From Flavobacteriaceae bacterium (GTDB lineage: Bacteria > Bacteroidota > Bacteroidia > Flavobacteriales > Flavobacteriaceae): DNA of 32,000 bases. The translations under genes and the position numbers were made by a program. Below are positions 20,549 to 32,000 of this stretch, one piece after another (the stretch's first letter is position 1; every line of letters begins with the position of its first letter). The notes below the pieces were generated by a model that worked only from the letters and a program-made list of their open reading frames with translations, had not been told where the DNA came from and did no database searches. Location of the stretch: NCBI GenBank assembly GCA_965224465.1, contig OZ245049.1, positions 660,001 to 692,000 of the forward strand. Reading direction: 5' to 3'.

Positions 20549-21051
20549 GTATCTACATTTATTTTTCGAAAATCTTTTGCTCCTATATCAATAAGATATT
20601 CTGCCTCTTTAGATAAATATTCGTGACTTTGTGCTTTCCAAGGTTCTTGTGAAAAATAAAACTCTCTATTTAATGCTTTTTGCTCATCAATAAATTGCTT
20701 ATTTATCTTCCACATCTCATCTGCATTATTATTTACTAATGCTTCTGCTTCTTTCCATTTTGTAGAACCTAAATCAAAATAAGTATGGTCTGTGCCTGCT
20801 CTTTGTATATAAGAATTGGATCCTCCATCTAAATATTTCCCAAGCATTACTTTTGATTGGTCTCCTTGCTTAGTTGCCAACAAAACAAAATCATCTAATT
20901 GCTTAGATGTAAACTTCCCCACCCCCTCAGCCAATTCTTCAAGCCTTTCACTACTTTTTTCAATTGAAAAAAAAGTGTCGTTTGCACTTAAATTGAGTGT
21001 CGAAAAAACACTAAGTACAACAATTAGGAATATTTTAAATAAGCTGTTCAC
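20530..21051 (-). CDS. Small secreted polymorphic toxin a (173 aa): shared 41-aa leader plus a unique C-terminal domain of unknown type
   Basis: GTG start. Leader MNSLFKIFLIVVLSVFSTLNLSANDTFFSIEKSSERLEELA is identical to that of ORF 27910-28620. Unrelated sequence follows from codon 42. Confidence 0.65.
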   Translation of the reverse strand: MNSLFKIFLIVVLSVFSTLNLSANDTFFSIEKSSERLEELAEGVGKFTSKQLDDFVLLATKQGDQSKVMLGKYLDGGSNSYIQRAGTDHTYFDLGSTKWKEAEALVNNNADEMWKINKQFIDEQKALNREFYFSQEPWKAQSHEYLSKEAEYLIDIGAKDFRKINVDTWKVIW

Positions 21052-21057
21052 GGATTA

Positions 21058-21065
21058 CAAAGATA
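21058..21065 (-). promoter_or_regulatory. Candidate Bacteroidota -7 promoter box TAtcTTTG upstream of small toxin a (copy at 28627-28634 for toxin b)
   Basis: The minus strand reads TATCTTTG 6 nt before the GTG start, matching the TAnnTTTG consensus. No convincing -33 element was seen. Confidence 0.3.
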
Positions 21066-21449
21066 GTTGATTTCTTAGTTTTTGTTTTTCTTCAATTGAA
21101 AAAAAAATAAACACAAAGTTTAAGGCTTGATTTTTTGTAATTAATGCCTTATCGAAATTTTCATTTTTTAGAATAATGCTCTATGGCATTGATTATAAAA
21201 AATGAGCATCCAAGGGGTTTGGGGAATGGAAGATTCCCCATATAAATAAATCCTGCGTAGCAGACCTATTATTTTTTTTGTGCGGTTGGGAGCGTTGGAT
21301 GTGTGGCTATTTTGCATAATACCAGTTATAACTACCTGGAGTTTTTCACGCAAGAGTATTATAACTTGTATTATGTTACTTAGCTTGGGGTGGTTTTTAT
21401 GGCGGATTTTTTGCTTTTGTGCGGTGGCACAGCTCTTTGGATTTTCTTT

Positions 21450-21463
21450 TTTTCAATTGAAAA
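21450..21463. repeat. Perfect palindrome TTTTCAATTGAAAA; related copies at 20955-20972 and 21091-21100 (and all three again at +7,569)
   Basis: Read directly. One copy lies inside the shared toxin leader coding sequence (FFSIEK). The other two lie in the 575-bp non-coding spacer. Confidence 0.7.
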
Positions 21464-21626
21464 TAAAAACGATAAAAAAGAAAATACAATGTGCTGTTTT
21501 TGCGGTGGGTTGCAGAAAGTGTGACATAAAAACCACAGAAGGGTTGGCGTGCGGAACAACATAAAGCACAAAGGCTTTTTGCTTTTTCTGCAAAAGTTTG
21601 GGTTTTATGTTGTGGGGATTGGTCGG

Positions 21627-21905
21627 TTATTTCTCTCCATAATGAGAATGTGCATTTAGTACATAAACTGTAACTATTTCTTCATTTATAGAATACACTA
21701 ATCGGTGTTTATGGTTGATTCTTCCTGAATACAATCCTTTTAAATTATGTTTCAACATTTCGGGTTGTCCTGTTCCTGTTGTTGGGTGTTCCATTAATTC
21801 AGTTAATAATTTCTGTAACTTCTTTAAAATTGATTTATCTCCTACTTTTTTATGTTTCTCAATATCTTCTAAAGCGGTTTTAGAAAATTCTAATTTATAA
21901 CTCAT
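21627..21905 (-). CDS. yoeB: Txe/YoeB-family type II toxin (copy A, Gly at residue 61)
   Basis: GQPEMLKHNLKGLYSGRINHKHRLVY aligns with E. coli YoeB [26 protein letters not shown]. C-terminal HSHY. 4-nt overlap with the upstream antitoxin ORF. Confidence 0.85.
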   Translation of the reverse strand: MSYKLEFSKTALEDIEKHKKVGDKSILKKLQKLLTELMEHPTTGTGQPEMLKHNLKGLYSGRINHKHRLVYSINEEIVTVYVLNAHSHYGEK

Positions 21906-29474: not shown

Positions 29475-29722
29475 AAACCTAATAATTCACTTATTTCTTT
29501 AGGTGTAGAAATGGTTTTTGTTTCTCCATTTTGAACTTCTAAAACGCTTTGTTGAATACGTTCTATCATCTTTGCATTAAAGTACATATCGTTCTCACTA
29601 ACAAGAGTTAATGCATACGATTTATCTTTCCCCCTTTGAACAATTATATACTCTCCTTTATCTACTCTTTCGAAGTATTCTTTTTGATTTTGTCTAAATT
29701 CTCTACTGCTTATAACTAACAT
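29471..29722 (-). CDS. Phd/YefM-family antitoxin (copy B)
   Basis: Identical translation to copy A at +7,569 nt. Confidence 0.8.
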   Translation of the reverse strand: MLVISSREFRQNQKEYFERVDKGEYIIVQRGKDKSYALTLVSENDMYFNAKMIERIQQSVLEVQNGETKTISTPKEISELLGL

Positions 29723-29785
29723 AATATCATATTTTGTGTACCAATATGGTACAATATACAAATAAATAAGCAAAAAGTATTCCAT

Positions 29786-30727
29786 TTACCCTAAAGGATG
29801 AAACATTTCTATTTGTTTACTCAAATTCTTCATGTCTTTATTACGGTACTTTTCTATATTTCCAACATTTTTATAACCGCTTAAATATTGGGTTTTTCTT
29901 AATCCAAATAAATCTATCCAAATGCCTATTCTTGATTGTTTGAGTTGAGTTAATCTTTTAATGTTTATTGTTGGATTCTGCTCCTTTATGGTTTTTACTA
30001 ATACTTTTAATTGCTCGTGTAAGCGTTGTTCTTTGTTGCAGTTTGGATTGAACAGTTTTTCGCTTTGCTCTGTATTTGGCTTGTTGTTTCTACCTATCCC
30101 TCTAAAATCGGTAATATAATCGTGAAAAGGAATTATCTGATTTGCTTCTAATTTTACTGTTCTGCTGTTCTTTCTTCTTACTCCTCCTGGGACTTTTATG
30201 ATTCCTTTTTTTAGATCTAAATCTTCTAATTCTAAATTCATTAAATCTTGCTTGTCCAATGCTTGAAAAATCATTAACCCCAATAGTAGTTTATTGCTGT
30301 ATTTAAAATATCCGTGTTTAGTTTTGTCTTGATAATTGGTGTAGATTTCTTGTAGTTCTTCTTCTGTTAATAAAATGATTTGCTCTTGTGCTACTCCTCT
30401 TAATCTTACATTTAAAGCAATGTTTTGTATTGCTTCTGTTGAGCTATTTAAAAGACGCTGTGCGTCTAAAAAGTGGTAATAATGTTCTATTGCTCTTAAA
30501 GTTGTATTGATACTTGTTTTTGATTTCTCTTGATTTTGTAAGTGTCCTATATAGTTTAATAACTGATTGTATTTTATCGTTTTCACGGTTAGTTTATTTA
30601 GCTGTAACCAAATTGTAAAAAGTCCTATTCTCATTATAAAATCCTTGATACATTTTTCGCTATAAAACCTATCTGTTAGCCATTTATCAAAGGCGAGAGG
30701 CTCGCTACCCAATTTATTATTTTTCAT
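29786..30727 (-). CDS. Divergent tyrosine-recombinase-like protein (copy B)
   Basis: Identical translation to 22217-23158. Confidence 0.6.
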   Translation of the reverse strand: MKNNKLGSEPLAFDKWLTDRFYSEKCIKDFIMRIGLFTIWLQLNKLTVKTIKYNQLLNYIGHLQNQEKSKTSINTTLRAIEHYYHFLDAQRLLNSSTEAIQNIALNVRLRGVAQEQIILLTEEELQEIYTNYQDKTKHGYFKYSNKLLLGLMIFQALDKQDLMNLELEDLDLKKGIIKVPGGVRRKNSRTVKLEANQIIPFHDYITDFRGIGRNNKPNTEQSEKLFNPNCNKEQRLHEQLKVLVKTIKEQNPTINIKRLTQLKQSRIGIWIDLFGLRKTQYLSGYKNVGNIEKYRNKDMKNLSKQIEMFHPLG

Positions 30728-31574
30728 CCTGTATTAATTGGCTGTCTGCCTCAGACTCTTCAAGTATGTGCGTATAAATCTGTGTACTATCTAACCTTTT
30801 ATGTCCTAAAAAATTACCAATATATTCTAACTCCATTCCTTGCTGTAAAAGATGTGTAGCAATGCTATGACGTAAACTGTGCAGGCTCGCCTGTTTTGTT
30901 ATCTCTGATTTCTTCATCAAAACTTTTAACCTGTTGTTTAAATATTGTCCTGTTACTTGTGGTTTTGATTTTCCAACTAATAAATAGTTACTATTTGGAT
31001 TGATTATTTCTCTTGCAAACTCAATATATTCTTTTAAATCTGCTATTACTTTTTTACTCATTGGAACGTATCTACTTTGGTAATTCTTAGATGGTTTTAC
31101 GTAGATTAATCCTTTGTTAAAATCGAGTTCTTTGGGTTCTAAATTAATGCCTTCTTTACTTCTTAATCCGCAACCATAGTAAATACTTAGCATTGCTTTA
31201 TCAAATAAACCACTTGGACTGTGCCCATCAATTGAAGAAAAAATACTTTTAATTTCTACTTGACTAAAGATTGTTTTTTCTGTTTTTATTTCTCTTTCTA
31301 CTATAATTTTATTGACTGCTAATTTCTGTTTCTTAGTCTTTTCTAAAAAGGCACTATATCTATTTATTACGTTAATATGACCTTGTATGTATTGTCTACT
31401 CGCTTTAGTTTGATGTAGGCCTTTTATGAAGTTTTCTATCTCTTGTTGATTAGCTTTTCTTTGATTTAAGTACTTGAAAAAGTTAGCTAATAATCTTACA
31501 TATCCTTTAATGGTACTTTCTGCATAACCCAATCTAATCAACCAATTTTCAAAGTTTTCTAATTCTGTTTTCAT
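30717..31574 (-). CDS. Tyrosine recombinase/integrase, XerC/D-like (copy B)
   Basis: Identical translation to 23148-24005. Confidence 0.85.
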   Translation of the reverse strand: MKTELENFENWLIRLGYAESTIKGYVRLLANFFKYLNQRKANQQEIENFIKGLHQTKASRQYIQGHINVINRYSAFLEKTKKQKLAVNKIIVEREIKTEKTIFSQVEIKSIFSSIDGHSPSGLFDKAMLSIYYGCGLRSKEGINLEPKELDFNKGLIYVKPSKNYQSRYVPMSKKVIADLKEYIEFAREIINPNSNYLLVGKSKPQVTGQYLNNRLKVLMKKSEITKQASLHSLRHSIATHLLQQGMELEYIGNFLGHKRLDSTQIYTHILEESEADSQLIQDEK

Positions 31575-31650
31575 AGGGGTGCCTTGCGTTTTGAGATTTG
31601 TATTGAGGTACTGACTTAACTTACTGATAATCTTTCAGTTTAGTTCCTCA

Positions 31651-32000
31651 CTAAGCTAACTGAGGAACTAATGAGGTACTGAGGTACTCGCTTTTAATAT
31701 CTTCAAGGGCTTTGTCTAAGGCATTTGTGATGTTGTCTTTCAAGTTTTGATACTCATCTTGATTGATAATTTCATACTCAAATCCTGTTCTGTACTTATT
31801 TCCGCCTATTATTTTGATATATCCGTAACTTTGCAAATCATATAAATATCTGCTTAATGTTTTGGGGTTGATTCGCATTTTGGCACGTAATTCTTTAGCG
31901 TAAAAACTTTGTGAACCACTCTTTTTTAAGTGTGCTTTCAGTACTTCCAAGAAATCCCTACACGCTTTTGTTAACTCATCACTTTTTGCCAGCAGTACTG
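31651..32000 (-). CDS. Primase-helicase, copy B; C-terminal part only, the gene continues beyond the right window edge
   Basis: The translation is identical to the last residues of the 846-aa protein. The MEVLKAH start in the ORF track is an edge artefact. Confidence 0.8.
   Translation of the reverse strand, partial: VLLAKSDELTKACRDFLEVLKAHLKKSGSQSFYAKELRAKMRINPKTLSRYLYDLQSYGYIKIIGGNKYRTGFEYEIINQDEYQNLKDNITNALDKALEDIKSEYLSTSLVPQLA

Follow-up and report, generated by a model that had tools for sequence, protein, structure and literature searches.

Tandem copies of a putative small integrative element at a polymorphic toxin junction in a Flavobacteriaceae genome

The window analysed here is a 32,000-nucleotide (nt) stretch of DNA from a Flavobacteriaceae bacterium (contig OZ245049.1, positions 660,001 to 692,000), and its right-hand part holds a direct repeat whose boundary falls inside two small toxin genes. 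We conclude that the repeat probably represents two tandem integrated copies of a small integrative, self-replicating element, which would target the junction between the N-terminal part of a toxin gene and its C-terminal tip and would stack toxin/immunity pairs. This reading is carried by direct observations: the repeat and its boundary, the gene content of the repeated unit, an architecture shared across a family of related loci, fusions of tips to long resident toxins (carrier::tip) or to a short leader (leader::tip), and short cores flanking the insertions.

Base-by-base comparison at an offset of 7,569 nt aligns 20929-24431 with 28498-32000, a total of 3,503 nt, with one mismatch; repeat detection gives the same family (D4) with the same spacing of 7569. 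The sole mismatch, at 21725/29294, produces a G to R change in YoeB (LYSGRINH versus LYSRRINH). To the left of 20929/28498 the copies are unrelated, with 20 of the 29 positions differing at 20900-20928 and only 6-13 matches per 30 nt further left. The identity boundary falls on the final base of codon 41 in two open reading frames (ORFs) of the minus strand, 20530-21051 (173 amino acids, aa) and 27910-28620 (236 aa), which have MNSLFKIFLIVVLSVFSTLNLSANDTFFSIEKSSERLEELA in common and then diverge. The copies are arranged head to tail with a period of 7,569 nt, giving a 7.6-kb unit. The second copy is visible only to 32000, where the window ends inside its primase gene.

20929 to 28497, minus strand: complete unit, copy 1, delimited by the period, the identity boundary and the gene content
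28498 to 32000, minus strand: partial copy 2 (leader, spacer, YoeB, YefM, rec2, rec1 and the 3' part of the primase gene), recognised by its identity to copy 1
29196 to 29474, minus strand: YoeB of copy 2
29471 to 29785, minus strand: YefM of copy 2
29786 to 30727, minus strand: rec2 of copy 2
30717 to 31574, minus strand: rec1 of copy 2
31651 to the window end, minus strand: C-terminal part of the copy-2 primase

Read along the minus strand, copy 1 contains toxin tip b, immunity b, an XRE-family regulator, a primase-helicase, two tyrosine recombinases (rec1 and rec2), a YefM/YoeB pair, a spacer and a leader, and it is followed by a second tip (a) with a putative immunity gene of its own.

27910 to 28497, minus strand: toxin tip b, 195 aa, with a D...E-x-K-Q motif (GYDG...IIIIESKQ)
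27134 to 27907, minus strand: immunity b, Pfam Imm49 (E = 1.7e-24), following tip b
26759 to 27121, plus strand: XRE-family helix-turn-helix (HTH) regulator, Pfam HTH_3 (E = 9e-17), divergent from the primase gene
24082 to 26622, minus strand: primase-helicase/replicase, with Pfam CHC2 zinc ribbon and Toprim, P-loop GASGTGKT and a C-terminal part resembling a winged helix-turn-helix (wHTH)
23148 to 24005, minus strand: rec1, Xer-like tyrosine recombinase, Pfam Phage_integrase (E = 7e-36)
22217 to 23158, minus strand: rec2, divergent Xer-like paralogue of rec1, identified by Pfam, alignment and NCBIfam
21627 to 22216, minus strand: YefM/YoeB type II toxin-antitoxin (YefM 21902-22216, YoeB 21627-21905; Pfam), in a variable cargo slot after rec2
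21052 to 21626, minus strand: conserved non-coding spacer of 575 bp, with blocks conserved with the related loci L001, L084 and L004
20929 to 21051, minus strand: leader 1, GTG start, 41 codons, Sec-type signal-peptide-like and then NDTFFSIEKSSERLEELA, in frame with tip a
28498 to 28620, minus strand: leader 2, identical to leader 1, in frame with tip b
20530 to 20928, minus strand: toxin tip a, 132 aa, read as a displaced tip at the downstream end of the array
20213 to 20548, minus strand: putative immunity a, 111 aa, overlapping the toxin-a stop codon and assigned by position alone

The initial annotation had described ORFs that recur at +7,569 with one residue changed, an identity that starts exactly at 20929/28498 after codon 41, and the gene content of the unit; the base-by-base comparison reproduces the first two, and the Pfam matches agree with the third.

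The two recombinases are conserved as a pair. In an alignment, the catalytic motifs checked for rec1 (Arg..HxxR..H..Y, here CGLRxxE, HSLRHS, LGH and IYTH) are present. The first catalytic Arg is missing from rec2 in every family member aligned, with ALD, GLT or GLN in place of GLR; rec2 retains the second Arg and the Tyr, and it has a conserved C-terminal ...HP(L/M) end in the window and in its homologues from L001-L068. Its sequence suggests a non-canonical or regulatory partner. In NCBIfam, rec1 is XerD/XerA-like under the cut-offs. The XerC/XerD model TIGR02225 gives 163.8 bits for rec1 and 54.7 bits for rec2 against a cut-off of 329.6, so neither is XerC/XerD proper, and the integron integrase model TIGR02249 gives 117.9 bits for rec1 against a cut-off of 265. 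The proteins are Xer-like yet element-encoded, which separates the unit from IMEX elements, users of the host Xer at dif, and they may form a heteromeric recombinase. In the cargo slot, YoeB matches YoeB_toxin at E = 6e-19, and YefM matches PhdYeFM_antitox at E = 3.8e-6, just under the gathering score.

Tips a and b appear to behave as C-terminal domains of polymorphic toxins. Such toxins are recognised by a variable C-terminal domain on diverse N-termini and a cognate immunity gene directly downstream (Zhang et al. 2012). Homologues of tip a are always C-terminal, on varied N-termini, and those of tip b are always C-terminal in proteins of 125-1807 aa. The gene directly downstream of tip b encodes an Imm49 protein; for tip a the downstream partner is positional, and a profile search with immunity a gave no family match. 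Imm49 is paired with restriction-endonuclease-fold toxins of the Tox-REase-1/6 type (Zhang et al. 2012, PMC3482391). Neither tip falls in a Pfam or NCBIfam family or has a significant fold match in the PDB that would identify its activity. The AlphaFold2 model of tip b, with a predicted local distance difference test score (pLDDT) of 83, gave weak PDB matches only, several of them to PD-(D/E)xK nucleases. The model of tip a (pLDDT 92, predicted template modelling score 0.87) had no significant fold match, and the tip may represent an uncharacterised toxin fold. Its invariant residues include Y40, Y50, F51, W58 and E71, numbered from the start of the tip.

The leader is highly conserved as a family, and in metagenomes it is fused to Fic, ART, WHH, AHH, SHH, EndoU and unknown tips. 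Its presence on many unrelated tips is expected if the leader is the constant right end of a shuttle for toxin tips. Some leader fusions (P0165, P0168, P0169; L006 19264-21653) break directly after ...FFSIEK and not after ...ELA, and continue into an ...IDAW(K/E)KL... linker that is also present in other Aquimarina toxin genes. These sequences may mean that the leader also uses a second type of junction or class of target, and the breaks after ...SIEK in a few leader proteins mean that the junction rule is not absolute.

Comparative evidence comes from relatives of the unit; related loci are given L numbers here. A family scan with one genome per species yielded 71 loci with the XRE(-)/primase/rec1/rec2 core. 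They are distributed among Flavobacteriaceae, Chitinophagaceae, Cytophagales, Saprospiraceae, Lentimicrobiaceae and others, and the position of the XRE gene is kept across them. Primase homologues number more than 2,000, many on contigs of 6-8 kb. The copy-1 backbone is 83% identical to L001 at the nucleotide level, and the cargo slot after rec2 holds ORF6N or is empty in other family members. Near-identical elements are found in differing contexts and samples.

Tandem copies that are 100% identical are present in L036, a long-read chromosome, with a period of 8,444, and in L038 (7,949), L045 (8,071), L048 (8,703) and L049 (7,941). The finished 77-kb plasmid NZ_CP133672.1 of the cultured Aureispira sp. 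CCB-E has copies that are 99.6% identical with a period of 7,652. Arrays can also be mixed, with differing family members side by side, as in L004, L031, L033, L037, L039, L059, L067 and L069. The source genome, a contig of 5,241,564 bp, encodes toxin a at 100% identity, at least six different variants of the primase and several further leader::tip genes, and a metagenome-assembled genome (MAG) of Cytophagales has an array region of roughly 90 kb.

Two observations concern single members of the family. The first is L085 (ENA ERZ27262649 k141_224725; 4281-4874), in which both recombinase genes are missing and the primase is followed by a 197-aa primase-wHTH-like ORF; it keeps the spacer and a leader::EndoU toxin with an immunity gene, and may be a decayed or non-autonomous derivative. 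The second is L049 (CBDDKS010000002.1), in which two identical Cytophagales-type units lie in a MAG labelled Kangiellaceae (Gammaproteobacteria). L017 is also labelled Gammaproteobacteria, and both labels are probably binning errors and not a sign of a wider host range.

The organization of toxin genes in these arrays is informative. The first tip is in frame with a long resident toxin of the Rhs or HExxH type, later tips are on the short leader, and the last tip differs and has a different immunity gene. In L038, L001, L004, L006 and NZ_CP133672.1, a carrier::tip gene heads the insertion and a leader::tip gene follows. For example, the 1,167-aa carrier of L038 ends with a 134-aa tip, an identical tip occurs after a 26-aa leader one unit downstream, and the 100% identity begins exactly at the tip. 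On the Aureispira plasmid, the order annotated by PGAP is large RHS, hypothetical, HTH, toprim, tyrosine recombinase, hypothetical (rec2) and short RHS; the set of hypothetical, HTH, toprim and recombinase then repeats, and is followed by a different short RHS and a different hypothetical. The hypothetical (immunity) gene behind the large RHS recurs behind the first short RHS, and the repeat starts inside the large RHS gene. Both L038 and the Aureispira plasmid therefore present the displacement array known for Rhs/CdiA toxins, a full-length carrier followed by displaced tips with immunity genes.

Single insertions show how short the flanking identity can be. In L006, from an Aquimarina isolate, a single element separates a 461-aa carrier from a leader::tip2 gene, and the same 16 nt, ATCAATAACGCGGGGG, is found at both junctions. 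Other single insertions are flanked by cores of 56 nt (L011) and 15 nt (TTATTATCCGTTCGG, L021), so that L006, L011 and L021 each have a short identical core at both ends, in the manner of attL and attR. For the Rhs-targeting loci L024, L034, L037 and L066, the similarity starts at ATTAYTATCCNTTYGG, coding for YYPFG. The L001/L002 element is 100% identical over 7,223 nt in three upstream contexts (two carriers and its own leader); its identity begins at TTGGCT in every context, in a layout that fits a circle or a tandem alike.

The same hexamer appears at both junctions in the window, where it encodes the Leu-Ala codons of ...EELA. This agreement is trivial because the two leaders are identical.

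20929 to 20934, minus strand: putative crossover core TTGGCT at the leader/tip-a junction, Leu-Ala codons of ...EELA
28498 to 28503, minus strand: putative crossover core TTGGCT at the leader/tip-b junction, the same hexamer

In L084, as in the window, identical leaders enter different tips from TTGGCT, and the identity ends at or inside the hexamer. Taken with L001 and L002, these joins would bracket the crossover in the window's subfamily to TTGG(CT), which in the window corresponds to 20934->20929 and 28503->28498. The large HExxH toxins of the window have the junction ...GAATTGGCA|GAGAGTTGG (ELA|ESW), which is one base off the leader end ...GAATTGGCT|. Joining the flanks of such an insertion would put the carrier in frame with the downstream tip and its immunity gene, as judged from the reading frames and translations of L006 and L038, and this joined arrangement is the expected state before insertion.

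From these features a mechanism can be proposed. From its left end the integrated element has a tip with its immunity gene, the XRE and primase genes, the recombinase pair, the cargo slot, the spacer, and a putative promoter with the leader; the tip at the left end has neither promoter nor start codon. An excised form would be replicated, as the primase-helicase and the conserved spacer suggest, and a circular replicating intermediate is envisaged. In a single reciprocal exchange, probably catalysed by rec1 and rec2, the leader/tip junction of the circular copy would recombine with a carrier/tip junction in the chromosome. The core would lie at the very end of the leader, and its partner would be the matching junction codons of a polymorphic toxin gene; recombination at matching junction codons would make the integration in frame. 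Whichever lies upstream, a long resident carrier or an earlier element's leader, would gain the incoming tip and immunity gene, with the element backbone placed behind them, and the displaced tip and its immunity gene would be re-capped with the promoter and signal-peptide leader of the element. Arrays would form by integration at the junction of a resident element. A circle that has replicated, or a dimer, may re-enter, or unequal crossing-over may follow later. Within the window, tip a and immunity a would be the displaced pair, and tip b and immunity b the element's own.

The initial annotation had proposed a 7.6-kb integrative and replicative unit that uses the end of the leader as its site and stacks toxin/immunity pairs, each with its own promoter and leader. 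This proposal is supported by the 71-locus architecture, the arrays, the carrier::tip fusions, the flanking cores and the joins at TTGGCT. The partner need not be the leader of a resident toxin-a gene, as had been suggested: in the relatives it is mainly long polymorphic toxins that are targeted, at the junction of carrier and tip. The leader would instead belong to the right end of the element and would re-cap any displaced tip.

Several points weigh against an integrative element. Taken by itself, the window could owe its break between leader and tip simply to a conserved module bordering a variable one. In the window's subfamily the proposed core spans only 4-6 bp, within codons that would be conserved in any case, so that the position of the crossover is drawn from few junctions. 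No empty site, excised circle or active recombination was found, and no unit-length contig has a terminal overlap indicative of a circular form; L084 looked circular, but its two leader copies enter different tips. The unit has neither a relaxase nor a packaging gene, and a Pfam search detected no relaxase or type IV secretion system domain in any of its ORFs, which sets it apart from integrative and conjugative or integrative and mobilizable elements. One of the two recombinases lacks a catalytic Arg. The family is not in IMG/VR or among close plasmid or phage records: a search of PLSDB gave no close relative, two Bacteroidota plasmid matches turned out to carry integrated arrays, and IMG/VR and INPHARED, searched for a phage or satellite origin, gave distant DnaG-type matches only. 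Copy 2 is read only up to 32000, and the head of the array lies beyond the window. Finally, a toxin-b search of the source genome returned tip b only in its 236-aa leader form, and no carrier::tip-b fusion. The simple expectation that tip b, joined to a long carrier, heads this array is thus unsupported; the leader form indicates that some other arrangement heads the array. To the right of 32000 there are probably further elements or a further leader, and the leader form of tip b is compatible with the third leader copy that the initial annotation had predicted there.

Three other explanations can be considered. The first is that the break merely marks the border of backbone and cargo, that RecA shuffles the tips by homologous recombination and unequal crossing-over duplicates the copies, and that the elements integrate elsewhere or are immobile. 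Any two family members would be expected to have identical leaders that run on into different tips, and backbones as similar as those of the window and L001 could recombine homologously. Among Rhs-type relatives the flanking similarity extends to 56-190 nt, and the window itself contains a classical orphan tip (9202-9486) with about 25 nt of upstream homology. Against this, carriers unrelated to the leader are joined to element tips in L001, L002, L004 and L006 with 6-16 nt in common, which is too short for RecA. In addition, every unit has two conserved recombinases, an identical element is broken at one hexamer in three contexts, and the L006 flanks, when joined, would give an in-frame carrier::tip2 gene beside its immunity gene. 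We regard this explanation as unlikely.

The second is that the array is a domesticated toxin-switching cassette, in which the recombinases act within the array between direct cores and mobility is secondary or lost. All cores are direct, repeat detection having found no inverted repeats, and recombination between them would excise units and bring a downstream tip to the carrier; the number of primase variants in the source genome and the length of the array region in the Cytophagales MAG are also in keeping with long arrays maintained in single genomes. Against a purely local role are the near-identical elements in other contexts and samples. Each unit also keeps a replicase and addiction-type cargo, which are typical of autonomous elements, and the family spans several Bacteroidota classes and targets differing toxin classes. 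This possibility appears quite improbable. The third, an assembly artefact in which one copy, or an episome plus an integrated copy, was laid out as a tandem, might be considered because the copies are almost identical, copy 2 is partly seen, tandem repeats beyond the read length are error-prone and many relatives are on unit-length contigs, and is nonetheless very unlikely given that the copies differ at one codon-changing base, that the two leader junctions enter different tips and must therefore both exist, and that relatives with long-read or finished assemblies also have identical copies in tandem, the source contig itself being 5.24 Mb.

If integrative elements are taken as the probable explanation for the window, a broader proposal can be made. 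The units may be undescribed, phylum-wide, autonomous shuttles for toxin tips: small circles that use a heteromeric Xer-like pair to enter in frame at the toxin junctions of the host (Rhs YYPFG in Chitinophagaceae and Saprospiraceae; ...ELA/NAG in Flavobacteriaceae), that constitute the long-missing vehicle and mechanism for the horizontal acquisition and the displacement of tips, and whose excision between direct cores would allow reversible switching of toxins. We lean slightly towards this proposal as a whole.

The outcome we describe, displacement of the C-terminus, is already known; different here would be the vehicle and the means, namely a replicative unit, a recombinase pair, cores of 6-16 nt and re-capping. 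A full-text literature search found no published description of such an element type. C-terminal displacement and arrays of orphan tips and immunity genes are established for Rhs and CdiA (Jackson et al. 2009, PMC2935791; Poole et al. 2011, PMC3150448), and the same displacement arrays are attributed to Koskiniemi et al. 2014 in the passage of PMC5727410 that cites it. As in those systems, a new tip and immunity gene are placed on a resident scaffold, the old pair is kept downstream and arrays stack, and relatives of the element produce this outcome in Rhs genes themselves. The Rhs/CdiA model, however, invokes homologous recombination via a long conserved core and no vehicle, whereas the element is a discrete unit with a replicase and two recombinases and the flanking identity can be as short as 6-16 nt. 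In addition, an orphan tip in the Rhs/CdiA model is silent, whereas the displaced tip here would gain a promoter and a signal-peptide leader.

Integrons offer a second parallel, in that a tyrosine recombinase, IntI, acts at a defined site by joining attI with attC, resident signals such as the Pc promoter drive the newest unit, and arrays accumulate. Their cassettes, though, are small, promoterless and enzyme-free, whereas the units here carry recombinases, replicase, regulator and promoter. Insertion would be in frame inside a coding sequence, with no attC-type sites, and the element is accordingly not classed as an integron. Another analogy is provided by phage 21 and e14, which insert inside icd and supply a replacement 3' end for the gene. 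Like these, the element would be a site-specific integrative element that integrates in a coding gene and supplies an alternative, in-frame 3' end. The end supplied by phage 21 or e14 merely preserves function, whereas that of the element would change the toxin and its immunity gene, with the displaced end re-expressed. In the shufflon, the recombinase Rci switches the C-termini of PilV by inversion among inverted sfx repeats at a fixed locus. The element resembles it in having a tyrosine recombinase and an in-frame change of a C-terminal protein segment, and is unlike it in that its sites are all direct repeats and the exchanged segments would be autonomous replicative units.

Two further groups of loci deserve comparison. 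rAID-1 loci are recombinase-associated clusters of orphan immunity genes in Bacteroidales (Ross et al., bioRxiv 10.1101/471110), and polyimmunity loci adjacent to XerC/D have also been described (Zhang et al. 2012, PMC3482391). Like the element, these are Bacteroidota loci with a Xer-like recombinase beside toxin-related immunity arrays, and active gene acquisition has been suggested for them. In rAID-1, however, one XerD-like recombinase at the 5' end precedes many orphan immunity genes and toxin fragments, all co-directional and separated by repeated intergenic motifs, and the cluster is defensive only. It has no replicase, leader or carrier fusion, and the unit in the window, with its recombinase pair, primase and intact leader::toxin gene, is not of this type. 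Tycheposons and satellites resembling phage-inducible chromosomal islands (PICIs), as outlined in PMC11876622, which cites Hackl et al. 2023, are small, combine a tyrosine recombinase with a primase/helicase and form tandem arrays at integration sites, as does the element. They have one recombinase and tRNA or intergenic att targets, in contrast to two Xer-like recombinases and a toxin junction here, and capsid-interference or packaging genes are absent from the element.

Integrase-like genes near Rhs or polyimmunity loci have been noted without a mechanism (PMC5727410; PMC3482391), and the arrival and in-frame joining of tips have so far been ascribed largely to homologous recombination with no known vehicle. 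The evidence from the window and from related loci suggests that a dedicated vehicle exchanges toxin tips throughout Bacteroidota. If correct, this would explain the rapid horizontal spread of toxin/immunity pairs in the phylum, the repeated presence of integrase-like genes near Rhs loci and the origin of long stacked arrays. It would also offer a natural system for programmable, in-frame replacement of protein domains, with a recombinase pair that uses a compact target compatible with coding sequence.

The spacer of the unit may hold an origin or regulatory sites together with arm sites for the recombinases. It contains long AT-rich inverted repeats, and a consensus match to the Bacteroidetes -7 box, TATCTTTG, lies at 21065->21058, before the start codon of the leader, where it may act as a promoter. 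A short palindrome also recurs in and near the spacer.

21452 to 21461, no strand: palindrome TTCAATTGAA, in the middle of a more extended AT-rich inverted repeat (about 21430-21497)
21091 to 21100 and 20959 to 20968 (the latter inside the leader ORF): further copies of TTCAATTGAA, recurring at +7,569

There are six copies of TTCAATTGAA in the window, three per unit, versus 0.17 expected. Related loci totalling 867 kb have about 75 matches, and the palindrome is conserved throughout the family, usually at a distance of 30-110 nt upstream from the junction. The full palindrome is TTTTTCAATTGAAAAA, and the copy in the leader ORF encodes FFSIEK. It could serve as an operator, an origin or an arm site. 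As the crossover site it was ruled out, because it sits 30-110 nt inside the right end of the element in L036 and L039. Chitinophagaceae members have an extra copy fixed about 1.06-1.12 kb into the primase gene. Rfam, searched for non-coding RNA in the spacer, gave spurious hairpin matches only. On the Aureispira plasmid NZ_CP133672.1, each unit has a pair of inverted repeats of about 55-78 nt with about 80% identity (11518-11756 versus 16786-16958, and likewise in the second unit), one between the immunity and HTH region and the other in the spacer; repeat detection found no counterpart of at least 40 nt in the window.

The window as a whole includes no tRNA or tmRNA gene, the junctions being inside toxin ORFs, and PADLOC identified no defence systems in it, only generic DnaG-like and HTH domain matches. 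On the minus strand, positions 1-15057 are occupied by a polymorphic-toxin locus of the classical kind, with two complete HExxH-motif toxins of 1,381-1,392 aa (3357-7535 and 10252-14397), in which the N-terminal DNA is near-identical (repeats D1-D5) and the C-terminal parts are unrelated, and a third copy begins at the left edge of the window. These large toxins are covered by no Pfam or NCBIfam family. The orphan tip at 9202-9486 begins at TTGGCA, and the locus also includes an Imm11/Imm43-like gene (14416-15057) and several putative immunity genes, beta-propeller-like ones among them. Between this locus and the array is a group II intron on the minus strand, with Rfam matches to D1-D4 at 19879-19996 and to domain V/VI at 16940-17015. 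Its reverse transcriptase/maturase ORF (18703-19524 and 17026-17370) is split by an ISAs1-family transposase gene at 17589-18716 on the plus strand, and an IS1380 transposase gene (15307-16698) adjoins the intron.

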